Shown here one piece after another: positions 1,243 through 15,322 of a DNA stretch of 64,000 bases. Origin of the DNA: Phycisphaerales bacterium (GTDB lineage Bacteria > Planctomycetota > Phycisphaerae > WQYP01); assembly GCA_027451365.1 (NCBI GenBank), contig DAIDJN010000018.1, forward strand, positions 1 through 64,000. Direction: 5' to 3'. The stretch's first letter is position 1, and every line of letters begins with the position of its first letter. Position numbers and translations under genes: made by a program. The notes beneath the pieces are model-generated. The model had not been told where the DNA came from, did not search any database, and saw only the letters and a list, made by a program, of their open reading frames with translations.

Positions 1243-2664
1243 TTAAGCTGTATTGAGATATATACATTTATATGGAAAACGGGTGCCTCCATGCGAGTCG
1301 GGCCGGGGGGCGGGCGGTGGATCGGTATGACCCGGCAGCGGAGCGACGGGGCCATCCGGTCCCTGCCCGCCCCCGGCGGGGCCGTCTTGGCTACTTATCC
1401 CTAAAAGTTTCAACGGGGTAGCCATTTCCCGGTTTCCTGCAGTCCAACCGTTTTCCCAGAGGTTGATGGCTTCGATAGCCTTCTCGTTGCTTTGGTCTTG
1501 GGTAAGCGGGGTGGGTGCTTTTAGATTGTCGGCGTATGGGCTTGCTGGTTCAATCAGCCAGCGTTTGGGTTTACAGTCTATGGATTCGTTGGAATTGAGC
1601 CGGTTCAGCCATCGTGGGATTGTGTAGGAAGTGCCGTGCTCTGTGCGCCTTGTTTCATAGGCGGTGCGGAAACCGTATTCTTTCGCAAGCTGGGTCGCTC
1701 GAAGCATTTCATTCCGGCAGGCTGCCCCTATCATCTCTCGTATTTGCGGGGCGTGGTGTTCCGTGATGGATCGGAGTGACCGAAGTTGGTGGTACATTGT
1801 GGAATGTGGCTTCCTGCTTCTGAATTCTTTCGGTCCCGTTACCCATGAATGCCAGCCCTTATAGCCCCAGGTGCGCCGGTGGTGTTCACGTAATAAATGC
1901 CCCTCATATCCCGGGCCGCCGGTCGTGTTCTTTGTTATGTACTTGCCGATATAGGATTCGGCGGCATCGCTGTTGGCCACGATTTCTATTTTCAGCCCAT
2001 GGATGGCGTTTGGGCCTTCGCTTGTCGTATAGGCACGGCTAAGCTCTCGCTGTACTATTGGTACATCTGCGGGATGGCATTTAATAAGAAAATGGTCGTG
2101 CGGGGTTCCGTCGCGATGGGATTCGCGTCCCTTAAGGCAGGTGGTTTTGATTCCATGGCGATTGAGCCGTTGGCGAAGTTGGCGGGCCATCTGGTCGAGT
2201 TTTGCTGCTGCCTGCGTCGGTGTAAAGCCTTGGTACCTGGGTGATGCCCAATGCCATTGAGTATCCAGCGTTGCGGTGACGAACAGATTGCCTGTTAATC
2301 CGTCCTGTGCCGCGAGGTCGGCCAATCCGTGAAGTGTTGCGAATAGCTTTCCTCGTCTGCGGTGCTGCTTTCGTTCTGGGCTGATTAGCTGCTCGAGCGG
2401 CAGGACTTCGTTGGGATCATCCGCATTGACGATGACATGATTCTGAGTAAATTCCAGTTGTCGTCGACGGTCTTGGATGGATGTCTGTATAAGCCATGGG
2501 CTTATTATTTCAGGCTGTCCATCCTGCAGGTTTCCGTCAACATGGTAGCTTCGCCAGCGGCGATCGCGGATGGATTGCTCACAAGCCCGGATCATGGCGA
2601 GCCTGGCGGTCTTGCGAGTAGTCGGATTGGTCACCGTGTCACACTTCTGCGGCGATAAGATCAT
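1243..2664 (-). CDS. Rolling-circle replication initiator, P2 gpA-like HUH endonuclease (Phage_GPA family)
   Basis: Motifs FVTATLDTQWH, ESHRDGTPHDH (compare EPHxDGTPHWH) and YIGKYITKN (YxxxY two-tyrosine motif). Confidence 0.8.
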   Translation of the reverse strand: MILSPQKCDTVTNPTTRKTARLAMIRACEQSIRDRRWRSYHVDGNLQDGQPEIISPWLIQTSIQDRRRQLEFTQNHVIVNADDPNEVLPLEQLISPERKQHRRRGKLFATLHGLADLAAQDGLTGNLFVTATLDTQWHWASPRYQGFTPTQAAAKLDQMARQLRQRLNRHGIKTTCLKGRESHRDGTPHDHFLIKCHPADVPIVQRELSRAYTTSEGPNAIHGLKIEIVANSDAAESYIGKYITKNTTGGPGYEGHLLREHHRRTWGYKGWHSWVTGPKEFRSRKPHSTMYHQLRSLRSITEHHAPQIREMIGAACRNEMLRATQLAKEYGFRTAYETRRTEHGTSYTIPRWLNRLNSNESIDCKPKRWLIEPASPYADNLKAPTPLTQDQSNEKAIEAINLWENGWTAGNREMATPLKLLGISSQDGPAGGGQGPDGPVAPLPGHTDPPPAPRPDSHGGTRFPYKCIYLNTA

Positions 2665-2885
2665 TTGGCGGCCTCCGGCTGTGGGGCTGGAGGCGGTTTA
2701 TTCTGCGAAGCTGCGGCCTTTGCGAGCTCGGCGATAGCCTGCTGCACGGCCGGGGAGAGCATTGGCCAAAGCTGGCAAACGGTTTCAAAATCGTCATCGT
2801 TTGGGCCGGAATTTGGGCCGGTTAGTTTTGAGTTGTCGTTATTTCGCGGGGTTTTCGGGGGGTGTTCTGGGCTTGGCACGCCCAT
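2661..2885 (-). CDS. Small hypothetical protein coupled to the rep gene
   Basis: 74 aa; its stop overlaps the rep ATG (ATGA). Contains DDFETVCQLWPMLSPAVQQAIAELA, a W-P-x-L motif I recall from small ORFs near planctomycete integrative-element ends (not verified). Confidence 0.45.
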   Translation of the reverse strand: MGVPSPEHPPKTPRNNDNSKLTGPNSGPNDDDFETVCQLWPMLSPAVQQAIAELAKAAASQNKPPPAPQPEAAK

Positions 2886-3007
2886 TGGTGGGGGTTTTTC
2901 GAATTTTGCCGGGCGCTCCGATTTTGCAGCATCTGCTGCGATTTAAGGGTTCTGGCGAGTATTGCCCTGATGACTCCTGCGCGCCGCCTTGCGCGCCTCC
3001 CTATGTC

Positions 3008-3031
3008 GGCGGGCGAGACGCCCGCCCCCCA
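3008..3031. repeat. REP-like palindrome GGCGGGCG-AGA-CGCCCGCC-CCCCA downstream of the pilin operon
   Basis: Perfect 8-bp stem; near-identical copies lie inside pilin leaders at ~8216-8241 and ~9197-9222. Confidence 0.7.
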
Positions 3032-3090
3032 GTTTGGCCTGACTCCCGCGTGGGCCTGTCGCCATGTGGCACCGGAACATTGCCGCAAGC

Positions 3091-6000
3091 CTACTGCGGG
3101 AGGCCTTGCAGAGCCACCACTTGCGGATCAGGCGGGTTGGGGCTGGTGGCACCGGCACCATTGCTGGTGGCATTGGTGCGATCGATCAGGGCAACAAATC
3201 GCTTCTGCCCTTCCAGAATGAATTCGGCGTTGGCATTCGTGGAATCCGGCGTCAGGCCACCCTCGGTGGGACTGCTCGAAGTGGAGGCCGGAACTGGGAT
3301 ACCCTGTGTCGCGTTGTACCAATCGGTAACCTTGTACGCTCCGCCATTTTGAATATAGGCCTCATTCAAACGCAAGGCTTGAATATAGGTATAGCAGATA
3401 AAAGTATCACTGCGGACGGTGGCCATATTGTAAAGTTCGGCAAAGCCGGTGGCGTTGTCACGGGCGGCGATGGATGTGGGCGAAACACCATTGAGCACAT
3501 TTGCCAAGGCCCATGTCAATTCCGCCTTAGAATGAAAGCCCAGCCCCCTGATGGCGCTGAACGTACCGAGCCGCAGGCTATACTGGTTAATATCTGTAGC
3601 CAGCGCCTGTGGGCTATTGGTTCCGCTCGTGCTGCCATCAAACGATCCGATCATGGCTTCCAGCACGGGCAGCGACGCCGTATTGATGTTTATGCGGCCG
3701 GGAACAGCCAGCTTGTTATAAATATTCGATCCATCATTGACGGAACCATCGGAAAAGGCTGAATCAAACGTGATGTAATCCAGCAGCTTGATGGCGGCGG
3801 GTTGGGGGACGGTCGCGGCGACATCATCATAAAAATCAAAGCGGGCGTTGGCTTCGTATTGCAGATTGGTATTTGGTTCATTGGTGTTTTTGGGAAGCGC
3901 GGCCACCTGTACGGCAAGCGGGCTTAGCGGCAGGTAACTGGCACCGGAAACAGACGCAAAATTCGCCACAAACGGGCTGGTTTCAAAATCGGCAATATTC
4001 AGCAGAGGAGAACCGGTGGCGGCACTAACGCCTGAGGGGTCAGATACGCTGTTGTAATATCCCAAGCAATCACCCATATCCGCAAAGCGGTCATAGAGGG
4101 GGATGCCGAATGCGGGACTGACCTGCGTATTGCCGGTTGTAATGCCAAGGTTACCCGCCCAAAAACCAGGCGTCAGTGTCTGGTTGGCGTTATCGCAATA
4201 CCAATCGCCCGCGGTGGTGGTGGCTCCGGGTACGCAGTTGCGTTGCACTGTATACACTCCAGTACCGCCCGTAAAACTGCCCACGACGCCGGTCATAAGC
4301 GGCTCAATATTGAAACTGTCAACCGGCATTTCGCTGGCGGTACCGGCCCGATTCACGAATGGCCGCAGCAGCACCACCTCCTGCGGGCTGGAACTTTGGG
4401 CGAATATCATGGTACCCTTTTGGAGTGTTACCGTCGGCGATGGACTCACCGTAAAATTGCCATTCTGCTGCACCACTACCAGAAACCCATTGGCGGGAAT
4501 TGTGGAGCTTATGGACGTGGCCGCGGAATAGGAAGAGCCGTTGTAAAGTTCCAGCTCCCAATTGGTCAGCGCCAGCGGTGCGCCAAACGGATTGTAAAGC
4601 ACCACGGCATAGTTTTTGTAGGTGACACTGGTTTTAGTTACCGTCGCATAAACCGCCGCCTGAATAATAAAGGGCTGTGCCGCCACTCCGGCTACAATTT
4701 CGTTGGTCGGGGCGGCAAATGTACCAATGCCGGAGAAATTTCCACTGGTACCATTATAGCCGCGGATGCAGGGGCCGGATGAATCGATAAATGAAGGTCC
4801 ATTGGTGCCGCCGTTGGCCACACCCATGCGATAGGTCATGTAATTGGCGGCGAACGCCTGGCCCTGGCTGGTGCCGAAGCCAGATTCCGCCATCGCTTGG
4901 GCAATTTGGGCGGCGGTAAGGGCGACACCGCCAGCAACATCTGCGCCAACGGCGTTCGTATTCGTGGCGCTGCCTGCCACTAGTGCCGGCGAATCCGCCG
5001 GAGCATTGACGAAAATTTTTCCGGGGCTTTGCGGCCATTCCTTCCAACTGACACCATTGACGGAATAGGCTGCCGAAGAGGTCAGGCCAAAAGGTGGTGG
5101 ATTGGCCACGTCCGGTTCGGTGCGCAATGGCCGGTCTTTGGAATAGGTGGTGAAGAACATTTTCCAGGGCTGGCCCAGGTTGGCGAAGCCTCCCCCATTG
5201 GGAGGATTGAATCCGAGGGTATATGGCAAAACAGACCCAACCCGGCAATCATAAAATGGCTGAGTCACGCCGGAGGCTATGCCAGTGGCCGGTATGGACC
5301 CCTGAAAAGCCCGCAGAGCGAGTTCCGAACTGGTACCAAAAAGTGCAATTGCCGCGGAATCAGTCCCGCCGGCATCGCGCGTCCAGAGGGCCTGCTGCCA
5401 AACCGAATCCACGTTATAATTGGCAAGACTGCCATTGTTGCTGCGGGCAATGGCCACCTTCAGCAAACTTAACATATCGCTTGTGCCACCGGTGTTGTTA
5501 TTGACCGTGCAATAGGGAGGATTGGTGCTTGTATCGTATGCATACCCAAGGCCATAGCCATTGAAATATTGTCCGCCCGGATTGTAGGCCGCGCCAGAGG
5601 CCTGCCCCACATTCAGATTCAACATGGAATTGGTATCCATGATCCGCACGGCAAAGCGGTAGCGTGTGCCATTGGGAGAACTGTAAGGCAGCAGATTCCA
5701 GCAGGAATCATCTATACCGTAGCGGTTGAATGTGGGCCAGACACTGTTGCTCCAGGCCGGGAAAACCACCGAGGCATTGGGCACATAAACCGTCCCCTGC
5801 GTTCCCGGTGTGGTCACCGCAGTTCCGCCGGAAAGCTGATATGACATGCCAATGTCATTTAGGCCGGTGCCCGGGTCGTACAGGAATGGACTTAATATGG
5901 AAAAAAGTGGATAGTTCACGCCCGGACTCACAGTTGGGGTGAAACCGGATGGTGGAGTTGTATAGTTACCTGTGATGGGTGGGGTCGGAGCAGACTGGCC

Positions 6001-6774
6001 CCCAGTGTATGCGCCAATTTCGATTGCCGCCGGCGCAGTCTGAATCTTTGTTGGGTCCACGCCGGTCCAAAGCATGTTCGTATTGGGCGGAAGGTAACTT
6101 TCCGATAGCCAGACCGGCAGCGACACCAGCCATGGTTCGCTGCGGTACAGGTCTTGTGAGTCGGTGTAAAACGAGGATGGTGTCCCGGGCGCGATACCCG
6201 TAGTAGTGCCCAATTCAGGCATATCCCACGTGCGGGTGTAAGGTTTGATAGGAGTTGCGGCATTCAAATAGGCCCCGCTGCCATCGGTTAATTGCGTTCC
6301 AATCTGGCCGCGCACAATATTCAACACTGATGTCTGCGCCAGCGCCAGGCTGGCATTGCCGGTGGAGGCATTAGTGGATTGGCGGTCGGCACCGGCCATC
6401 AGCACATATACGCTGCCCATCACGGCCAGCAGAACCAGAATGGCGATAACCAGCAGAAGAATCATGCCGGACGCCCGCTGGCGGGCGGACCGGTCAATGA
6501 ATAATGAGTCCTGAGTCATGAGTAATGGGGATGACGACGATGACGAATTTTTACCACGAAGACACGAAGACACGAAGGACGGGGGGGAGACGACGGGAAT
6601 AGCCACAGAGGTCACAGAGAACACGGAGGACACAGAGGACGACTTGGGAGAGCAGTCAGAATGCAGAAGGTTGCAGCAAGGAGATGAAGGAATCTTCTGC
6701 CTTCTTACTCCTGTCTTCTGACTTCCATCTTCTGCATTCTGCGTTTTGTATTCTGTATTCTTTGTGTTCTTCAT
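3091..6774 (-). CDS. Large PilX/GspK-like minor pilin with lamin-tail-like and helix-hairpin-helix segments; 103-aa leader
   Basis: RQRASG|MILLLVIAILVLLAV (no Glu5, as in PilX/GspK), AVVLYNPFGAPLALTNWEL...TIPANGFLVV and GRININTASLPVLEAM; last gene of the pilin cluster. Confidence 0.7.
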   Translation of the reverse strand: MKNTKNTEYKTQNAEDGSQKTGVRRQKIPSSPCCNLLHSDCSPKSSSVSSVFSVTSVAIPVVSPPSFVSSCLRGKNSSSSSSPLLMTQDSLFIDRSARQRASGMILLLVIAILVLLAVMGSVYVLMAGADRQSTNASTGNASLALAQTSVLNIVRGQIGTQLTDGSGAYLNAATPIKPYTRTWDMPELGTTTGIAPGTPSSFYTDSQDLYRSEPWLVSLPVWLSESYLPPNTNMLWTGVDPTKIQTAPAAIEIGAYTGGQSAPTPPITGNYTTPPSGFTPTVSPGVNYPLFSILSPFLYDPGTGLNDIGMSYQLSGGTAVTTPGTQGTVYVPNASVVFPAWSNSVWPTFNRYGIDDSCWNLLPYSSPNGTRYRFAVRIMDTNSMLNLNVGQASGAAYNPGGQYFNGYGLGYAYDTSTNPPYCTVNNNTGGTSDMLSLLKVAIARSNNGSLANYNVDSVWQQALWTRDAGGTDSAAIALFGTSSELALRAFQGSIPATGIASGVTQPFYDCRVGSVLPYTLGFNPPNGGGFANLGQPWKMFFTTYSKDRPLRTEPDVANPPPFGLTSSAAYSVNGVSWKEWPQSPGKIFVNAPADSPALVAGSATNTNAVGADVAGGVALTAAQIAQAMAESGFGTSQGQAFAANYMTYRMGVANGGTNGPSFIDSSGPCIRGYNGTSGNFSGIGTFAAPTNEIVAGVAAQPFIIQAAVYATVTKTSVTYKNYAVVLYNPFGAPLALTNWELELYNGSSYSAATSISSTIPANGFLVVVQQNGNFTVSPSPTVTLQKGTMIFAQSSSPQEVVLLRPFVNRAGTASEMPVDSFNIEPLMTGVVGSFTGGTGVYTVQRNCVPGATTTAGDWYCDNANQTLTPGFWAGNLGITTGNTQVSPAFGIPLYDRFADMGDCLGYYNSVSDPSGVSAATGSPLLNIADFETSPFVANFASVSGASYLPLSPLAVQVAALPKNTNEPNTNLQYEANARFDFYDDVAATVPQPAAIKLLDYITFDSAFSDGSVNDGSNIYNKLAVPGRININTASLPVLEAMIGSFDGSTSGTNSPQALATDINQYSLRLGTFSAIRGLGFHSKAELTWALANVLNGVSPTSIAARDNATGFAELYNMATVRSDTFICYTYIQALRLNEAYIQNGGAYKVTDWYNATQGIPVPASTSSSPTEGGLTPDSTNANAEFILEGQKRFVALIDRTNATSNGAGATSPNPPDPQVVALQGLPQ
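6626..6734. repeat. 109-bp perfect direct repeat, copy 1 (copy 2 at 12413-12521), within prepilin leaders
   Basis: Base-by-base comparison shows identity; encodes EDGSQKTGVRRQKIPSSPCCNLLHSDCSPKSSSVS. Confidence 0.95.
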
Positions 6775-6843
6775 ACATCACCTGTTTCTTAATGTTCTGG
6801 CCACAAGGCGGCAACCGCCTGCGTTAGCATGTGGTTATTCTGG

Positions 6844-8370
6844 TCATTGCGGAAAATTAATTATCTGGGTTATGGTCTGGGTGCTCATGCGGTTGTTGGG
6901 GTCGGTGACCAGATAGGTAATTTTCAGGGCCACGGGCCAGTATTGTTTGTTGGCCTGGGTGAAAACCAGTGTCTGCGTGTCATAGGCATCACCGGTTTCG
7001 GAAATGGCGGTCGGGACCAGATTCGGATCATTTGACAGTGGGAAGGCATCCGGCCCGTACCATTGCAATTGCCCAAACGCATTCGGATAGCCGACATCCA
7101 CGGCAAAACTTGGAACGCCTTGCAGCATAATAGGTGTCATGCGGAAATAGCCGTTCAGGGCGGCGGTGACAGATCCATGACCACCTTGCGTGGAAGCCTG
7201 CGGAGATGAAACCGAGGCAAAACGGTAACAGTAGTCATCCGCGGCGGTCTGAAGGGCGAGATTCCCGACCGCCTGTTCCGCCGCCGCCTGCGAAATGGTC
7301 GCCACATCAAAGCGGGAAGATGTGGCTTGCGCGGCTGTTTCGCCAGCACCTGTCGGGGTACCTGGTGCCGGGCTTCCAGTGCCCGGATAGGTGATATTGG
7401 CAAAGGCCGGATCGGTGAAGTTACCGGCTGTGTTCGTTGACGTCAAAAGAAACAGATGCCGCCCCAAGTAGAACTGGCCCGAAGTCAGGCCGGAGGGCTG
7501 GGCATTGGAAGGCAGCACATTGGCCTGCGGCCAATAATATGGTTCAGCAGTACCGTTGGCCAATTCGCCTTGGCTGACATACAACTGTCCATACCAAATG
7601 GCGGCAGCATTGGAGGACACAAAATCCGTTAACGGCGAACTGGTGTTGTTTCCAGTGCGACTGTGAAACGAACCGTTGGCGATAAAGCCAAGTTGATCAT
7701 CCCGCCACAAAAGTGCCGGTGCACCCGAAACTGCTGTATTGTACGTTGCCCAAAGCGGTGTGCCGCCAGAGGTTCCGGGCTGATTGCCTGTGCTGGCGGT
7801 ATTTCCCTTAATGCAAAAATAGACAGTGGTAACCGGGTAGGTACCTGCCGCGGTGACTTCATCACCGGCCTGATATACCTGACCGATAGTCCAGATTGGG
7901 GCGTAAAATCCCTGGCGGACAATCAGGTAGCCGCCGCGGTCAAGGTGTTGAACATCAGAGGCAATTTGTGCCTGTACAGCCCGCACGTCAGACATGGTTT
8001 TGAGCGTGGCCTGCCCCACGCGAACTGCGTGGCCCGCAAGTTGGAAAATTTCACCCACTGCGCCCATCATGACCACCAGAATGGACATAGCGACCAGCAT
8101 TTCAATTAAAGTAAAGGCACGACGATTTTTAGCCGCAGAGGACACAAAGGACGACGACGGATTTTCACCACGAAGGCTGGGAATAATGACTGGGAGGCGG
8201 CCGTCTCGGCCGCCAGGCGGGCGAGGACGCCCGCCCCCCATAGTGCCAGAAAAATGGGCAGACCCCACCACGGACGGGCCGACGACGGATTTTACCACAG
8301 AGGAAGCCCGTGTTGGTCGCAGTTCGTTGTTCGTTGATCGTTGGCTGTTGTTTTTCATAAGGTCACTCAT
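6844..8370 (-). CDS. Prepilin-type (PilW/GspJ-like) minor pilin; 85-aa leader
   Basis: KNRRA|FTLIEMLVAMSILVVMM N-methylation motif. Confidence 0.8.
   Translation of the reverse strand: MSDLMKNNSQRSTNNELRPTRASSVVKSVVGPSVVGSAHFSGTMGGGRPRPPGGRDGRLPVIIPSLRGENPSSSFVSSAAKNRRAFTLIEMLVAMSILVVMMGAVGEIFQLAGHAVRVGQATLKTMSDVRAVQAQIASDVQHLDRGGYLIVRQGFYAPIWTIGQVYQAGDEVTAAGTYPVTTVYFCIKGNTASTGNQPGTSGGTPLWATYNTAVSGAPALLWRDDQLGFIANGSFHSRTGNNTSSPLTDFVSSNAAAIWYGQLYVSQGELANGTAEPYYWPQANVLPSNAQPSGLTSGQFYLGRHLFLLTSTNTAGNFTDPAFANITYPGTGSPAPGTPTGAGETAAQATSSRFDVATISQAAAEQAVGNLALQTAADDYCYRFASVSSPQASTQGGHGSVTAALNGYFRMTPIMLQGVPSFAVDVGYPNAFGQLQWYGPDAFPLSNDPNLVPTAISETGDAYDTQTLVFTQANKQYWPVALKITYLVTDPNNRMSTQTITQIINFPQ
8151..8278. 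repeat. 128-bp repeat containing a REP doublet, copy 1 (copy 2 at 9132-9259)
   Basis: 8 mismatches in 128 bp; contains TGGGRGGCGGCCGTCYCGGCCGCC-A-GGCGGGCGAGGASGCCCGCCCCCCA. Confidence 0.95.
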
Positions 8371-8403
8371 TATTCAATACTCAATCGTCACCGCGCATTG
8401 CCA

Positions 8404-9357
8404 TCAGAACTTCAGCGTGGTGGCGTATATATACACCGTCGGGCTGGCGGTCTGCGGGCTTGGGCCGGTAGCCGGCGGTGCGTAAATAATTGAATCATTC
8501 GGGGGCGTTTGGGCCGAGGTTGTCAGCCCGGTGACGGCATATTGTCCGTTGGCATTAATTATGGTGCGAACCACCCCGCCGGTGGTCAGATCCACACCCG
8601 TTGTGCCAATAGGCATGCCGGATACGGTCGCGGTGGACAATGTTGGCGTGGGGCTGCCGCCGCCGTAGGTGCTTTTGCTGTCACCCTGATTAAATACGAA
8701 TATATATATATCCCATGTCGGAATCGCCGCCGGATCGGCGAACGATATCGGGTCCAGACGGATGACCGCGGTCCAGGAATAAAGGGCGTAGGGATTGCCG
8801 GAAGTCCCCCCCAACGTGCTGCTATAGGGCACAGTGCTGTTGAGTTGGTAGGTGGCCATGCTGGCACTGCCAACCGCTGTCCAGGCTATTGCCGAGGGCG
8901 GCGCATTGGCGGTAGTCGGACCATAGACGTTCGTCAGATAGGCGACGGCACTTTGGGCGATGGTCTGACCGATGGTTTTCTGGGCGTCCTGCGTGGTCCA
9001 TTTGATGGCAATGGGGAATGTGGCGGCGACCATTATCAGGCCGACCCCCAGAATCGCGATGGCAAACATGATTTCAATTAAGGTAAAACCACGACGATTT
9101 TTAGCCACAGAGGTCGCGGAGGACACAGAAAACGACGACGGATTTTCACCACGAAGCCTGGAAAAAAAGACTGGGGGGCGGCCGTCCCGGCCGCCAGGCG
9201 GGCGAGGAGGCCCGCCCCCCATAGTGCCAGGAAAATGGGCAGACCCCACCACGGACGGGGCAGGCCGCTGGCCTGCATCCTCATTGATCCGTGATCTGTG
9301 ATCAGTGATCTGTGATCTGGCTTCTGTATTCTGTATTCTGTGTTCTGTATTCTTCAC
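8404..9357 (-). CDS. Prepilin-type (PilV/GspI-like) minor pilin; 90-aa leader
   Basis: KNRRG|FTLIEIMFAIAILGVGL; the GTG start overlaps the upstream gene's stop (GTGA). Confidence 0.8.
   Translation of the reverse strand: MKNTEHRIQNTEARSQITDHRSRINEDAGQRPAPSVVGSAHFPGTMGGGPPRPPGGRDGRPPVFFSRLRGENPSSFSVSSATSVAKNRRGFTLIEIMFAIAILGVGLIMVAATFPIAIKWTTQDAQKTIGQTIAQSAVAYLTNVYGPTTANAPPSAIAWTAVGSASMATYQLNSTVPYSSTLGGTSGNPYALYSWTAVIRLDPISFADPAAIPTWDIYIFVFNQGDSKSTYGGGSPTPTLSTATVSGMPIGTTGVDLTTGGVVRTIINANGQYAVTGLTTSAQTPPNDSIIYAPPATGPSPQTASPTVYIYATTLKF
9132..9259. repeat. 128-bp repeat containing a REP doublet, copy 2
   Basis: 120/128 identical to 8151-8278. Confidence 0.95.
9285..9356. repeat. Two adjacent heptamer tandem arrays, (TGATCNG)5 and (TTCTGTR)4, in a prepilin leader
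   Basis: Arrays at 9285-9319 and 9322-9349; related TTCTGYR arrays at 6730-6757 and 12517-12544. Confidence 0.9.
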
Positions 9358-10226
9358 TGTATGATCCCTCCGGTATAGGTGTTCACCGTCAGGGTGTTGC
9401 TGTGGCCGAGGGCGTAAGCGCCCGGACTGCTATAACCGGGGGTTGCGGTGCTGCTAATGGTCTGCGGCCAGTTGCCTACGTTAAACACCAGCACTGCGGG
9501 GGTGGTGGGGCCAACAGAAACCGTATAGGCGGGGTAGGCGGATGTACTGATCTGGCTATTTGGCAATTCCACTACCGCAACGCTGCTTAACACAATAAGA
9601 TGGCCGCTGCTGTTGAATACCACTACCCGCGGAATGGTGAAAAGGCCGCCGGAGGGCGTCGTGCCGGAATCCGCTCCCGCCTGCGGTCCGGCAAATTGGG
9701 ATTCAACAATATTGGGCATCTGAAGGCCGGCGTCGTCGTAGGCGGCGCTTCCCACCAGGCCCGCCGTATAGGTTGCCTTGGGCAGGTATTGCACTGATCG
9801 TGGTAGGTAGGGAATAAAGTTCACGGTGCCATAGCTGACCTGGCCAATGGGCGCATATTCGTAGGCAAAGGCGGTTTCGCCTGTGAAGCCGGGCTGTTCG
9901 TACATGACCAGGGCCACATAGGTATGCATTCGCAGAGCCAGGGTTTGCGCTTCGCCGAGTGCGGCGGAAATCTGGTTCACACCCTGCACCTGGCCACTGT
10001 TGCGAAACAGCGCGACAAAGCCGGGTATGGCGACCGCGGCCAGAATGCCCATGATGGCGATAACAGCGAGGAGTTCGATAAGGGTAAAACCGTGGCGTTT
10101 TTCAGCCACCGCGGATGATGACGACTGGCGGGCGCGAACGAACAGATTGCCGGAATACGTATTGATTTGCGTAGGAATCTCTGATCGTTGATCTCTGATC
10201 GTTGATTGTGGGTCGTTGTTTGTCAT
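9354..10226 (-). CDS. Prepilin-type (FimT/GspH-like) minor pilin; 46-aa leader
   Basis: EKRHG|FTLIELLAVIAIMGILAAVAIP...ISAALGEAQTLAL...VVVFNSSGHL. Confidence 0.8.
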   Translation of the reverse strand: MTNNDPQSTIRDQRSEIPTQINTYSGNLFVRARQSSSSAVAEKRHGFTLIELLAVIAIMGILAAVAIPGFVALFRNSGQVQGVNQISAALGEAQTLALRMHTYVALVMYEQPGFTGETAFAYEYAPIGQVSYGTVNFIPYLPRSVQYLPKATYTAGLVGSAAYDDAGLQMPNIVESQFAGPQAGADSGTTPSGGLFTIPRVVVFNSSGHLIVLSSVAVVELPNSQISTSAYPAYTVSVGPTTPAVLVFNVGNWPQTISSTATPGYSSPGAYALGHSNTLTVNTYTGGIIQ

Positions 10227-10287
10227 AACAGTACTCGTTCCATACTCCGGTCATGCGGCTTCGGCCGCCGGACAGTTATTGCTATGT

Positions 10288-11271
10288 TTATTGTCCAAAC
10301 ACAATGTCGTCGCCATCAAAATAAGTTCCATCCGGGCCGGCGCTGACCAGCAGATAATTCTGCGAACCGGTTATGGTGGAACCGGTGGTGGTATTGCTGA
10401 TGTTGGCACCGATCAGCGGCAAAAATGCCGCGTAGTTGGAGCCGGCGGCCTGACTGCCGGTTGGTCCTGTGGCGGTGGCGCTGTTGTCAGTGGAATTGAA
10501 AATCCCCTCGCCGGCGGTAGCACTGAAAACAGCTGTGCTGGTGGGCGATGTATTGGCTGAAAAATAGAGGATCGGATTGGGATGACTGCCCGCACTTGGT
10601 GGGAAGGAATCGCCGATGTAATAATCGTCGGTGTCAAGGTCCACGATGTTATTGGCACCAATATCCAGATAAGGACCGTAAACCGTGTTGGAAACGCCCA
10701 CACGGAAACCTTTGGTTTGGGAAAGGGAGCCGCCGGCGTATCCCGTATTGCCGGAGTTACCCGGCGCGCCATCATATTTGCCAGGCAAATACCCCAGTAA
10801 TGCCTCGGCCAGAATTTCATAGCCTTTGCCACTGCCAATAAGACTGCCGTACGCGGTATTGGTGTTGGATACCAGCCCGGACTGCGGATACATATTAAAA
10901 TCAGAATGATACGCCTGCAGGCCGGTGCTGATGGTGCGCATATCGCCCATGGTGGCACTAATGTAGGCCTGTTTTTGTGCGGAAATAACCACCGGCACCA
11001 GAATAGCGATCAGAATTGCGATAATGGAAATAACCACCAGCAATTCAATAAGGGTAAAGCCGCGACGATTTTTAGACACAGCGGACACAGAGGACATAGA
11101 GGACGACGGTGACGGGCTTTTACCACCAAGACACGAAGACACGAAAAACGAAGACGCAAGGGCAGGCCGCTGGCCTGCATCCATATTGATCAGCGAACTG
11201 TGATCCGTGATCTGTGGCACCTGGTCCGTGCTCTGCGTTGTCTGGCTGTTGTTCGTCATAACATTACTCAT
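10288..11271 (-). CDS. GspG-like pseudopilin/pilin; 71-aa leader
   Basis: KNRRG|FTLIELLVVISIIAILIAILVP, GLQAYHSDFNMYP and C-terminal YLLVSAGPDGTYFDGDDI. Confidence 0.85.
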   Translation of the reverse strand: MSNVMTNNSQTTQSTDQVPQITDHSSLINMDAGQRPALASSFFVSSCLGGKSPSPSSSMSSVSAVSKNRRGFTLIELLVVISIIAILIAILVPVVISAQKQAYISATMGDMRTISTGLQAYHSDFNMYPQSGLVSNTNTAYGSLIGSGKGYEILAEALLGYLPGKYDGAPGNSGNTGYAGGSLSQTKGFRVGVSNTVYGPYLDIGANNIVDLDTDDYYIGDSFPPSAGSHPNPILYFSANTSPTSTAVFSATAGEGIFNSTDNSATATGPTGSQAAGSNYAAFLPLIGANISNTTTGSTITGSQNYLLVSAGPDGTYFDGDDIVFGQ

Positions 11272-11313
11272 TATTCATTACTCATTGATAAATCCGATCA
11301 AAATCGAGATTTA

Positions 11314-12561
11314 TTATTGTCCGCCGTAGACGACGACATCATCGGAGGCGGGAGCCTGGTTTCCTGCGGTTATGCCATTGAGGTTCTGGCCATAAATATG
11401 GTCGGCCCCCGCGCTGATCAGCACGAAGCCGCCCACCACGGGATTGCCGACCGCGTTGACCGCCGTGCCGGCTGGCAGATCATTAATATTGACGACATCG
11501 TTGGCTAGTGCATTATTCGCAATGGTGGACGATCCGTTGGTGGCCGTAGGGTTAAACGAAGAATATTGCTCGGAAGTTTGGGAATTGTTTTTGGTGGAAA
11601 TAATATTTTGTTGGGTATAAGTACTGTTGCAATTCAAATAAAAAGCGGCCGCGGTCCCAGAATCTGTGCCCACGGGCACGCCAGTAGTCCCTGGCATGCC
11701 GGGCACTTTGCGGAAATACAGGATGGGCACGCCGGCGGGGAAATCATCAAATAGCGTGGGAAGCGTGTTGAAGGTTGCGCCCGCTGGGGTCAGAGTGGGA
11801 AACGTCTGCAGATCTCCGCTGGAAGCGGATGGATTGTAATAGGCGCTTTTCTGCACTCCGTTGTTGCTGTAGTCGATAGGGCCGGAACCGGGGGTAAGGT
11901 CCACATAGCCGCCTGAAACGCCTGAGGTCGAACCAGTATACGCCAAGGTGGTCACGCCGGTTGGGGGCGTCTGGCCGGTTGGATAAACCGTCCCCATCAG
12001 CCCCAGAACCAGATTCTGGGTTCCGGTTATTTTATTGCCACCAATCGTCACATAGCCCTTCGAAATATCTGACTCGCTGAACGGACCCGGATAGGCATTA
12101 AAGGCGGAATAATAACTTAAGCAGCTTGCTCTAATAGCCCCAAGTTCCGCTTCCGTTGCCGCTGAATAGCCGGAATTAATGGCACTGGAAAGCGCCGGCA
12201 GCAGAATGGCCATCAGGATGGCGATAATGGAAATCACCACCAGAAGTTCGATCAACGTAAAACCGCGACGATTCTTAGCCACAGAGAACACAGAGGGCGA
12301 CGACGGCGGGATTTCACCGCGACGACACGACGACACGACCGATGACGACGACGATTCACCACGAAGGCACGAAGACACGAAGGACGGGGGGGCGACGATG
12401 GGATTTAACACAGAGGACACAGAGGACGACTTGGGAGAGCAGTCAGAATGCAGAAGGTTGCAGCAAGGAGATGAAGGAATCTTCTGCCTTCTTACTCCTG
12501 TCTTCTGACTTCCATCTTCTGTATTCTGTATTCTGCATTCTGTATTCTTCGCGTTATTCAT
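11314..12561 (-). CDS. GspG-like pseudopilin/pilin; 100-aa leader
   Basis: ATG at 12561 with GAGGA SD; KNRRG|FTLIELLVVISIIAILMAILLP; C-terminal FVLISAGADHIYG...DDV. Confidence 0.85.
   Translation of the reverse strand: MNNAKNTECRIQNTEDGSQKTGVRRQKIPSSPCCNLLHSDCSPKSSSVSSVLNPIVAPPSFVSSCLRGESSSSSVVSSCRRGEIPPSSPSVFSVAKNRRGFTLIELLVVISIIAILMAILLPALSSAINSGYSAATEAELGAIRASCLSYYSAFNAYPGPFSESDISKGYVTIGGNKITGTQNLVLGLMGTVYPTGQTPPTGVTTLAYTGSTSGVSGGYVDLTPGSGPIDYSNNGVQKSAYYNPSASSGDLQTFPTLTPAGATFNTLPTLFDDFPAGVPILYFRKVPGMPGTTGVPVGTDSGTAAAFYLNCNSTYTQQNIISTKNNSQTSEQYSSFNPTATNGSSTIANNALANDVVNINDLPAGTAVNAVGNPVVGGFVLISAGADHIYGQNLNGITAGNQAPASDDVVVYGGQ
12413..12521. repeat. 109-bp perfect direct repeat, copy 2
   Basis: Identical to 6626-6734. 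Confidence 0.95.
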
Positions 12562-12628
12562 ACCATCCTCATTTCTTCGTCCGGCCGCGCGGCCAAGTGG
12601 GGGTACCCTGTTTGGGCACAGTTTGGGT

Positions 12629-13921
12629 TCAGCTCCCGCCGCCACCAATGGTGGACAGCAGTTTGATGTACGGCAGGAAGACCGCCACGACAATGGTTCC
12701 AACCACGCCGCCAAGGCCGACGATCATGATCGGTTCCAGCAGGCTGACCAGAGAACCGACCAGCACATCGACTTCTTCATCATAATTATCAGCGACCTTC
12801 ATGAGCATTTTGTCTAGGTCGCCGGTTTCTTCACCCACGTCAATCATATTGACGACAATGGCATCGCAGACGCGCGAATTACGCAGCGGTGTGGCGAAGC
12901 CTTCGCCCTCACGAATGGCGTCGTGCACTTTCTGCAGGGCTTTTTCAAACACCATGTTGCCGCAGGTATCGCGGGTAATGCTGATGGCTTCCAGAATCGG
13001 GACGCCGGCTGAAAGCAGTGTGCCGAGTGTACGGGTCCAGCGGGCGATGGTTCCCTTGGAAACAATTTTGCCCATGACCGGAATTTTCATTTTCAATAAG
13101 TCTATGGCATATCGGCCCGGCTTGGTCTTGCCGATAATTTTCAGCAGCAGCCAGATCACAAAAGGTGTGGCGATAATTTCCGCCCAGCCATATTGATGGG
13201 CAATCCAGTTGGATGTGTGAATCATGAACAGCGTAATCGCCGGCAGACCGGTTTTAAACGAAGCAAACAGCTTCTGGAATTTGGGGATAACGAAATACAT
13301 GATGCCGGTTACCATAATCACGGCGGCGCTCATGACCACAATAGGATAAATCATGGCACCACGAATACGCCGTTTGAGTTTCTGGGCTTTTTCCATGAAA
13401 TCAGCAAGGCGCTGAAGAATCACATCCAGCACGCCGCCGGTTTCACCGGCCTGCACCATGTTGCAGTACAACTTGTCAAACACTTTCGGATGCCGCGCCA
13501 TGGATTCAGAAAGGGTGGCTCCGCCTTCCACATCGGAGGCAATGTTGTCCAGCGTGTCGCGCATCAGGCCGGGCCGCTGCTGTTGGTGAAGAATTTTAAG
13601 GGACCGCAAAATCGGCAGGCCGGCATCCTGCAGCGTGGAAAGCTGACGCGTGAACTGAGTTATAAGTTTCAGGGAAACGCCACCAAAGTTAATGTTGATG
13701 GACCCCGGCTTTTTCTTTGCACCGGCGGCCCCGGTGGCGGCGGCCGGCGCCCCCCCGCCCGGCGCGGTTTTACCTTTCTTCAGGGTCTTTTCCTTGATCT
13801 TCATCGGGAAATAGCCCTGCGAGCGAATTTTGGAAATTGCGTCATCGGAGCTTTGGGCGTCAATTTCCGACTTGACCGATTGCCCGGCGGCGTTCAACGC
13901 TTCATACTGAAACACTGGCAT
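12629..13921 (-). CDS. pilC: Type IV pilus / T2SS inner-membrane platform protein (PilC/GspF family)
   Basis: MPVFQYEALN start with GGAGG SD; FTRQLSTLQDAGLPILRSL, AGETGGVLDVILQRLA, VGEETGDLDKML and LLEPIMIV. Confidence 0.93.
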   Translation of the reverse strand: MPVFQYEALNAAGQSVKSEIDAQSSDDAISKIRSQGYFPMKIKEKTLKKGKTAPGGGAPAAATGAAGAKKKPGSININFGGVSLKLITQFTRQLSTLQDAGLPILRSLKILHQQQRPGLMRDTLDNIASDVEGGATLSESMARHPKVFDKLYCNMVQAGETGGVLDVILQRLADFMEKAQKLKRRIRGAMIYPIVVMSAAVIMVTGIMYFVIPKFQKLFASFKTGLPAITLFMIHTSNWIAHQYGWAEIIATPFVIWLLLKIIGKTKPGRYAIDLLKMKIPVMGKIVSKGTIARWTRTLGTLLSAGVPILEAISITRDTCGNMVFEKALQKVHDAIREGEGFATPLRNSRVCDAIVVNMIDVGEETGDLDKMLMKVADNYDEEVDVLVGSLVSLLEPIMIVGLGGVVGTIVVAVFLPYIKLLSTIGGGGS

Positions 13922-14341
13922 GTGATTGCCTCCGCAGACCCGGCGGATAACAGCCGGGTCGAAAGTCTTGGAACTCTTCAGGATGGCACGCGCCAACTGG
14001 TTCCTGTAGTTGTTATAGGGAAAGCGGTCTGGGGCGGATAGGGGGCACGGCCCCGCATAGACAATGGCCGGACGATGAAATGCCGGCCGCAATCTGGATT
14101 GTTTTTGGCCGACTTCCGGTAAAATATAGGCGGAAACGGCTCGATTTCTAAAAAAAAGGAGCGATTCCGGCAAAAACCGCCCCATTTTGCCCGCCAAGCC
14201 GTTATCATGCCCAGCGGCGGGACGGATTATCGCACCCGACCGCCGGGCAATTGTTGCCACCTGTGCTGGAATATGGACGCGCTTATGATTCCACGTCACT
14301 CGACTGAAGCATACCCCCCGCCATCCTTGCGGACTCTGGCC

Positions 14342-15322
14342 ATGGAACAGGATTTGGCGGGTCAGGCCGCTGCGCTGATCCGCATGGCGGTGCGGGAAGA
14401 CCTGGGCTATGGCCCCCCAGCCGAGGCGATATCCGAACCGGGAACGCCGTCCGGACCAGTCGCGGGAGATATCACCTCGCAAGTTGCAATTCCTGACAAT
14501 CTTCAAGGCCAGGGCTGTATTATTGCCCGACAGGCCGGTGTTGCCGCCGGAATTGGTCTTTTATCGCAGATAACCCAGGAATACAGCGAACAAATTCAAG
14601 TGCACCTGTGCGTTGCAGATGGCGACGCGGTTGGGGGCGGAACAATGCTGGCCACGGTGCGCGGTCCGGCGCGGGCGATTCTTTCGGCGGAACGTGTACT
14701 GCTGAATTTTGTGGGGCGGCTTTCCGGTATTGCCACGTTGACGCGAAGCTTTGTAAAGGCGGCGCGCACCGGCTGCGGACCGAATATGGCCTGTCCGCAA
14801 ATTTGTGATACTCGCAAAACCACGCCAGGCTGGCGGCATCTGGAAAAATATGCGGTTCGCTGTGGTGGCGGCCTGAACCACCGCATGGGCCTGTACGACG
14901 GTGTGATGCTGAAGGATAACCATCTGGCGGCACTGACCAAGCAGTTGGGACCGGGCCATTCGCTGGCTGATTTAACCCGCCACGTTCGTCAGGAAACCGC
15001 CAGGGAAATTCCCATCTGGCTGGAAGTGGATACATTGGAACAACTGGCCGACGCGCTGCCGGGCGGCGCAGACATCATTCTGCTGGATAACATGCCCCCC
15101 GCCCAGCTTCGGCAGGCTGTGGAAATGCGCGATCGATTGAACGCGCAGCGCCGGCCTCTGCTGGAAGCCTCCGGCGGCATTACGCTGGCCAACATTGGCG
15201 ACGCCGCCCGCAGCGGGGTAGACCGCATCAGTATTGGCGCACTCACGCACAGTGCGCCGTGGCTTGATGTTTCCATGGAATTTATCCCCGATAGTCAGAC
15301 AGGCGACCCCCGCCATGCATAA
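14342..15322 (+). CDS. nadC: Nicotinate-nucleotide diphosphorylase (carboxylating); start uncertain
   Basis: EDLG...GDITS, ERVLLNF, DTRKTTPGWRHLEKYAVRCGGGLNHRMGLYD, LKDNH and EASGGIT. Confidence 0.95.
   Translation: MEQDLAGQAAALIRMAVREDLGYGPPAEAISEPGTPSGPVAGDITSQVAIPDNLQGQGCIIARQAGVAAGIGLLSQITQEYSEQIQVHLCVADGDAVGGGTMLATVRGPARAILSAERVLLNFVGRLSGIATLTRSFVKAARTGCGPNMACPQICDTRKTTPGWRHLEKYAVRCGGGLNHRMGLYDGVMLKDNHLAALTKQLGPGHSLADLTRHVRQETAREIPIWLEVDTLEQLADALPGGADIILLDNMPPAQLRQAVEMRDRLNAQRRPLLEASGGITLANIGDAARSGVDRISIGALTHSAPWLDVSMEFIPDSQTGDPRHA

Follow-up and report, generated by a model that had tools for sequence, protein, structure and literature searches.

How much sequence can a type IV prepilin carry ahead of its cleavage site, and can that sequence be built from repetitive DNA? 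These questions are raised by six prepilin-type genes (g1–g6) that follow pilC on the minus strand of a 64-kb stretch of DNA from a Phycisphaerales bacterium. This stretch, hereafter the window, belongs to contig C18 of a 4.06-Mb, 88-contig metagenome-assembled genome (MAG; G000). In each gene, 138–309 nt lie between a far upstream in-frame start (here called distal, as opposed to proximal starts near the cleavage site) and the G/A|FTLIE or G|MILLL cleavage site. The repeats within these stretches are real, common to several leaders, kept in frame and fast-turning between relatives, and modules of the same kind also lie in frame within surface-polysaccharide genes of the same genome. On the strength of these sequence comparisons, the leaders are probably translated from the distal starts, with the repeats tolerated in the manner of Rickettsia palindromic elements (RPEs) and their removal by prepilin peptidase predicted. 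Comparison was made with a congener (G001), a member of another genus (G013) and two genomes from other genera of the same family (G018 and G020). The parts of the cluster are as follows.

12629..13900, minus strand: pilC/GspF-type platform protein gene at the head of the cluster (PF00482, 8.3e-65), repeat-free.
12262..12561, minus strand: g6 leader, 100 codons; a near-copy (94%) of the first ~235 nt of the g1 leader, followed by CGT/GTCGTC repeats and nonamers.
11314..12261, minus strand: g6 mature part, 315 aa, pilin-like.
11059..11271, minus strand: g5 leader, 71 codons; g2-type start module, heptamers, GCAGGCC hairpin, octamers and nonamers.
10288..11058, minus strand: g5 mature part, 256 aa; best GspG/PilA-like match (TIGR01710, 8.2e-13, below cut-off).
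10089..10226, minus strand: g4 leader, 46 codons; ATG, 14-nt/7-nt repeats (GATCAGAGATCAAC), then a unique part.
9354..10088, minus strand: g4 mature part, 244 aa, pilin-like.
9088..9357, minus strand: g3 leader, 90 codons; GTG start, ~9 heptamers (CAGAATA/CAGATCA), GCAGGCC hairpin, GC hairpin doublet, tail and nonamers.
8404..9087, minus strand: g3 mature part, 227 aa, with a PilV/GspH-like N-terminus.
8116..8370, minus strand: g2 leader, 85 codons; g5-type start module, two GC hairpins (the "doublet"), CGTGGTGAAAATCC tail, A at -1.
6844..8115, minus strand: g2 mature part, 423 aa, minor pilin-like.
6466..6774, minus strand: g1 (PilX/GspK-like) leader, 103 codons; ATG, degenerate heptamer array, 13-bp-stem hairpin block, nonamers and octamers.
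3091..6465, minus strand: g1 mature part, ~1124 aa, with weak LTD and T2SSK matches below cut-off.

Reading frames ahead of the cleavage site were compared in 17 genes (six from G000, six from G001 and five from G013). In 17/17, the frame of the gene stays open longest, for 44–227 codons, as against 8–88 codons for the longer of the two other frames, and those other frames contain 0–11 stops each over the leader stretches. In two of the G013 genes, c and d, the 75 and 45 codons before G|F, respectively, include no ATG, GTG or TTG, so the repeats there must be read. Likewise, G001 g3 and g4 have none of these codons within 34 and 28 codons of the site. Once translated, each of the 17 leaders carries a net positive charge (+2 to +41) and is hydrophilic; none has a 19-residue window that exceeds 1.45 on the Kyte-Doolittle scale. 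This chemistry fits the cytoplasmic leader described in the relevant section of PMC4471445.

The distal starts leave gaps of -4 to 69 nt to the upstream stop, so that the genes are spaced like those of an ordinary operon. A preliminary description of this DNA had invoked a GTGA stop/start overlap and Shine-Dalgarno (SD) sequences in favor of these starts. The overlap of g4 and g3 is present at 9357-9354, and while it reads GTGA in G000, it reads ATGA at the corresponding place in G001, behind an identical GGAGG. SD-like motifs were found before three of the six distal starts: AGGTG 4-5 nt before the g1 ATG at 6774, GGAGG 9 nt upstream of g3, and GAGGA 4-5 nt before the g6 ATG. Candidate proximal starts consist of a GTG at -7 in g3, g4, g5 and g6, a GTG at -10 in g2, and an ATG at -18 in g1 (in the proximal part of its leader, which is unique) and at -13 in g5. 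The GTG at -7 sits within the TCTGTG nonamer and is not conserved, being GCG in g2 and missing from g3, g4 and g6 of G001. None of the proximal candidates of g1–g6 is preceded by an SD-like motif, whereas such a motif precedes the nearest ATG in 31 of 39 other prepilin-like genes of G000, against a background of 12%. In the ~40 other prepilin-like genes of this genome, the nearest ATG lies 3-38 codons upstream and repeats are missing. One of them, a DUF1559-type prepilin gene in the window (62616, minus strand), had been described as having a repeat-free leader, and this was borne out, with the nearest ATG at -38 and a TTG at -8. Its 38-aa leader stands at the long end among the other prepilin-like genes of G000.

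The leader coordinates and lengths first reported (103, 85, 90, 46, 71 and 100 for g1–g6) were reproduced from the in-frame distal starts. PF07963 (N_methyl) matches five of the six proteins above cut-off (31.9-38.4 bits; cut-off 21.2), with the motif starting at residues 43-96, and the same five proteins exceed the cut-off for TIGR02532. The remaining product, that of g1 (1227 codons, PilX/GspK-like, cleavage site G|MILLL), reads G|MILLLVIAILVLL and is without E5. Because it gives the best GspG/PilA-like match, g5 is a candidate major subunit. In the section of PMC4471445 that treats them, the class III leaders of type IV pilins and pseudopilins are 6-26 aa long, hydrophilic and cytoplasmic. 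The six genes resemble this class in their N_methyl motif, in G or A at -1, in E at +5 in five genes, in a hydrophilic and net-positive leader, in the neighboring pilC and in the presence of a Peptidase_A24 gene in the genome (C26:10109-10423, 37.3 bits, above cut-off). They differ from it, as that section presents it, in that the leaders are repeat-built and 46-103 codons long (up to ~214 in G013); a length of 6-26 aa is obtained solely with the proximal GTG or ATG starts.

At the head of the cluster, the pilC open frame (12629-14506, minus strand) begins ~200 codons before the conserved MPVFQYEALNAAG start. The true pilC start is probably near 13840, and the long open reading frame (ORF) is therefore no evidence of an extension.

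The six leader stretches together make up 1485 nt, or 2.3% of the window, and contain 24 of its 44 Tandem Repeats Finder rows, with units of 7, 8, 9, 14 and 21 nt. Blocks are common to g1 and g6 (157 nt, 94% identity), to g2 and g3 (145 nt, 92%) and to g3 and g5 (57 nt, 89%), while a 42-nt block at 86% identity spans the distal starts of g2 and g5 and an 88-nt block is found in g1, g5 and g6. Two inverted repeats, I3 with 28-nt arms and I6 with 21-nt arms, form hairpin-capable palindromes. Paralogous leader blocks differ by indels of 18 and 9 nt, and the 18-nt indel, between g1 and g6, is in frame. The proposal that the leaders are mosaics of common repeat modules was thus confirmed, with tandem arrays, GC hairpins and inter-leader blocks at 86-94% identity, although some particulars were revised. 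The SFVSSCLRG array, reported as a nonamer, has a unit of 8 nt (CACGAAGA on the plus strand) and not 9 nt. What had been called a doublet of repetitive extragenic palindromic (REP) sequences does not represent a dispersed REP family here, as it occurs in only two copies in the entire assembly, in g2 and g3. Lastly, pilC contains no arrays, as claimed; the mature parts, which were also said to be free of repeats, hold only two trivial rows, at 10364 and 10999.

Are the modules confined to the pilin operon? They are not: across the whole assembly, blastn-short gives 19 matches beyond the operon, and 15 of these fall in one exopolysaccharide/lipopolysaccharide (EPS/LPS) cluster on contig C59 (G000:C59:64000-83999, hereafter L001), in agreement with nhmmer. 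Neither are they equally dense genome-wide, since outside the operon they lie almost solely in this cluster, and no genome-wide dispersed REP family was found in G000 by blastn-short or by nhmmer with five modules. Two GT4 glycosyltransferase genes of the cluster (L001 1312-3222 and 6825-8291, minus strand) carry long in-frame arrays and hairpins (PQINTDxHRL, KTEDRRQK, PRRHEDTK). The gene at 1312-3222 aligns to a 405-aa orthologue from G014 over residues 7-244 and 510-626, and its Pfam halves lie at residues 14-172 and 510-605. These matches flank ~235 repeat-encoded, in-frame residues, which are therefore an insertion. Two Acyl_transf_3 genes of the cluster have arrays at their N-termini. The G013 modules cluster in the pilin operon, apart from ~20 short dispersed sites, one of which takes up the leader of another prepilin gene, of DUF1559 type (L023 1923-3131).

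Three further loci in the EPS/LPS cluster were recorded. An Acyl_transf_3 paralogue is present in two overlapping ORFs (L001 9942-10898 and 10573-11358, minus strand), which match the profile over positions 2-139 and 90-320; this split is a frameshift, a pseudogene or an assembly error. A PDDEXK_3 gene of the GxxExxY type (L001 3478-4152, minus strand) and a 23S rRNA-intervening-sequence (23S-IVS) protein gene (L001 17235-18035, minus strand) are each preceded by heptamer-array repeats of 95-150 codons.

Strong differences between relatives were observed in the leaders of the pilin operon. The orthologous operons of G018 and G020 have repeat-free leaders of 13-23 aa from ATG. The G001 leaders are 29-73 codons long, and although the hairpin block, the doublet and the heptamers are missing from them, their frames are nonetheless open. 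In G013, the leaders reach 65-214 codons and use another module set (WRLGGSK/NRQDAK nonamers) with the same FVSSCLRGK tail. Expanded leaders of a similar kind were also seen in loci of G006 and one further public MAG. A query with the g6 leader against a collection of 5.8 billion proteins returned three proteins, all prepilins, with longer and shorter length classes lying outside the search. The g6 orthologue P0002 is identical to g6 at 248/310 positions of the mature part and has a 97-aa leader that is a different mosaic, closer to the g1 leader of G000 (54/87 identical) than to that of g6 (44/87). Similarly, the g5 orthologue P0003 is identical at 206/246 mature positions and carries a 144-aa leader, again a different mosaic. 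Because orthologues and relatives carry different mosaics on similar genes, leader modules are gained, lost and exchanged much faster than the genes diverge. The gene order pilC-g6-g5-g4-g3-g2-g1 is identical in G000, G001 and G013. An anticipated comparison of the operon in relatives thus found turnover of leader modules and no gene swaps.

Variation was also sought in contigs of four metagenome samples (X1-X4). Over positions 8050-9450, the only indels were +9 nt in the g2 leader (in frame, at 8149, in one contig) and +3 nt in the body of g3, and no heptamer copy-number variants were detected at the g3 array in these contigs, which hide rare alleles.

In the g1 region (window 6479-6842), one X2 contig has 112 nt in place of a 364-nt stretch of leader and intergenic DNA, between flanks that are ~90% identical over 166+ nt. 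This contig is a shorter-leader variant of a close relative.

How could such sequences persist? Translation from the distal starts would make the repeat modules part of unusually long class III leaders that prepilin peptidase is predicted to cut off. As the leader would be cytoplasmic and discarded, nearly any hydrophilic, stop-free insert might be harmless there. Short arrays and hairpin modules, originating by slippage, local duplication and gene conversion among neighboring leaders, could then persist, while frame-breaking versions would be purged because they would kill the gene. The repeats would be passengers, as RPEs are in enzyme loops, and neither a switch nor a shuffling device. The "safe harbor" proposed in the preliminary description agrees with the open gene frame in 17/17 genes, the four genes without a nearby start, the turnover of the modules, the leader chemistry and the GT4 insert. 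Its second suggestion, that the modules are handles for the shuffling of pilin cassettes, is not supported, given a constant gene order in 3/3 genomes, direct orientation of the repeats, and metagenome joints with sides of only 22-51 nt.

The original paper on RPEs is reportedly that of Ogata et al. In the portion of PMC10969869 that deals with them, RPEs are "selfish DNA" inserted in frame in protein-coding genes. Measured against that portion, the likeness here is that hairpin-forming modules are read in frame at tolerated sites (leaders, a GT4 loop or linker, acyltransferase N-termini) and that the repeat is missing from orthologues (the 405-aa G014 protein for GT4, G018 and G020 for the leaders). 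The differences are that the repeats form a mosaic of 7-, 8- and 9-nt arrays plus small hairpins, rather than one defined element of ~150 bp, and that they are low-copy and lie at two surface-structure loci in the assembly rather than in many unrelated genes. The closest behavior described is that of RPEs, as a resemblance and not as membership. The modules do not make up one defined element, and they are few in the assembly. Neither terminal repeats nor target duplications turned up; between G000 and G001, the leaders are too diverged for filled and empty sites to be defined.

Several observations weigh against translation of tolerated repeats from the distal starts. A proximal start is possible in all six genes and would produce ordinary leaders, for example (M)AKNRRG|FTLIE, and the distal starts of g2, g4 and g5 are without an SD-like motif. 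Genes that have no proximal start occur in relatives, and none is found in the window. The 17 genes are non-independent: most of the leader is common to g1 and g6, and to g2 and g3, through recent copying, and the orthologues are related by descent. Certain arrays lack stops in all six frames, and upstream of the 23S-IVS-protein gene the repeats leave three frames open simultaneously, so that part of the leader openness is compositional. The low copy number in the assembly also fits poorly with a freely spreading selfish element, and we know of no leader of such length demonstrated as processed.

Might the repeats not be translated at all? They could be untranslated intercistronic RNA or DNA elements, with proximal starts giving ordinary 7-18-aa leaders, hairpins acting like REP sequences or bacterial interspersed mosaic elements (BIMEs) in the operon, for example by stabilizing or partitioning the polycistronic mRNA, and open frames arising as a by-product of stop-poor repeats and the copying of whole 5' blocks between genes. 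The textbook leaders available from a proximal start in 6/6 genes, the 6-26 aa given for known leaders in the pertinent section of PMC4471445, the existence of GC hairpins and a 13-bp stem, the freedom of pure tandem arrays from stops in any frame and the three open frames of the tracts beside the 23S-IVS-protein gene are all consistent with this. GC-rich tandem hairpins between the genes of an operon are indeed REP/BIME-like, but here they are inside an open frame and the doublet has two copies in the assembly, not hundreds. Such an explanation also does not account for a gene frame that is open in 17/17 while the other two frames contain stops, for the four genes of relatives without any proximal start, for a proximal GTG that is contained within the TCTGTG nonamer and lost in g2 and several G001 genes, or for the presence of an SD-like motif at no proximal start as compared to 31/39 comparable genes. 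Folding of the leaders yields the GC hairpins and a 12-13-bp stem with modest whole-segment z-scores (-0.04 to -2.99), and Rfam, run in E-value mode over 6000-13000, returns 0 matches. Promoter-like sites are at expectation (6 seen versus 6.3 expected), and the excess of terminator-like sites (14 versus 8.6 expected) consists of weak sites, none convincing inside the leaders. Untranslated elements are rather unlikely. A related idea, which we consider quite unlikely, is that the leader-coding segment houses regulatory nucleic-acid structure, in which arrays and palindromes set translation rate, mRNA half-life or the on/off state of each cistron. In that case the peptidase would erase the protein footprint and the prepilin leader would serve as a coding "untranslated region".

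Two further explanations give the repeats a role in variation. Surface-polysaccharide enzymes are classical targets of phase variation, and the only other module locus encodes such enzymes, including Acyl_transf_3 proteins with an N-terminal array. The 7- and 8-nt arrays behind the starts may be contingency loci at which slippage shifts the frame and switches each pilin on or off, with the EPS acyltransferases and glycosyltransferases switched alike. In g1, g3, g4 and g6, arrays whose unit is not a multiple of three set in 5-20 nt past the distal start. A precedent exists in NeuO of E. coli K1, where, according to the part of PMC3046976 concerned with it, a tract of heptanucleotides lies 2 nt past the start codon and is ON only at multiples of three copies. 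As in this poly-psi variable number tandem repeat, a surface-modifying gene would have translated heptamer repeats immediately after its start codon, and three units make one in-frame heptad. Unlike the NeuO tract of that account, however, the arrays here are degenerate and mixed with other modules, are in frame in 17/17 genes and have no contig copy-number variants. A long perfect tract of non-3 units was not found, as the 7-/8-nt arrays match at 70-100% over 2.9-9.1 copies and those of g1, g3 and g6 contain at most ~2 perfect consecutive units. No gene is out of frame (0/17), the leaders also contain 9-nt arrays and hairpins, which are unable to shift the frame, and the copy number of the g3 array is constant in the contigs of the four samples, which is weak evidence because contigs hide rare variants. 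A switch of this kind is very improbable. The common modules have also been proposed as handles for recombination by which entire pilin cassettes are shuffled or deleted. Between g2/g3 and g1/g6 there are indeed direct repeats of 145-157 nt that are 92-94% identical, modules do move between the leaders of non-orthologous genes, and in some metagenome contigs modules from different genes, or the pilC end and the g5 start region, are joined. These cross-gene joints were rejected as cassette rearrangements; their sides are 22-51 nt at 85% likeness, typical of repeats or of other organisms, and they are probable repeat artefacts. As direct repeats, the common blocks would delete genes and not shuffle them, and with identical gene order and content in 3/3 genomes of two genera, cassette shuffling is unsupported and scarcely credible. 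It is leader modules, not cassettes, that move between genes, and the genomes and contigs compared gave no sign of a dedicated pilin variation system.

Heptamer repeats at gene starts are known from Beggiatoaceae, where TAACTGA direct repeats near start codons are described as intergenic in the passages of PMC4679880 that report them. Both sets of heptanucleotide direct repeats cluster at gene 5' ends, but the unit differs, those repeats are intergenic, and no link to prepilin leaders is apparent in those passages. Repeat-expanded prepilin leaders were not found described in the literature, with subscription journals outside the coverage. Type IV pilin leaders are taught as tags of 6-30 residues. 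If leaders of 50-200 residues are indeed made from repeat DNA, they would stretch the presumed tolerance of prepilin peptidase and of the signal recognition particle/Sec pathway, and would point toward an evolutionary rule by which a discarded coding segment can accumulate repeats that are purged from other places. Software that calls genes or predicts pilins on the assumption of short leaders will put starts in the wrong place or overlook such genes in Planctomycetota and other uncultured groups, and the leader may serve as a fast-evolving strain marker. Should the repeats instead regulate each cistron, they would offer a new means of tuning pilus subunit stoichiometry.

Other repeats were encountered in these genomes. 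PQI/ICG-type nonamers on other G000 contigs were considered as leader modules and rejected as a separate repeat family. A separate dispersed family, unrelated to the leader modules, consists of ATCTGTGGN nonamer arrays of a few hundred bp, one frame of which reads ...NSRQFAHGNKICGICGICG..., at the following sites.

ATCTGTGGN nonamer family in G000: C1:4398-4739, C19:74253-75616, C56:33941-34324, C67:9267-9938, C68:25937-26512 and C83:31629-32336.

Arrays of LCVLCDLCG-type nonamers adjoin RHS/YD-repeat-like C-terminal ORFs in G000 (C57:1518-2669 and C58:673-1686), and in G013 RHS-like ORFs carry similar arrays at their 5' ends (L026).

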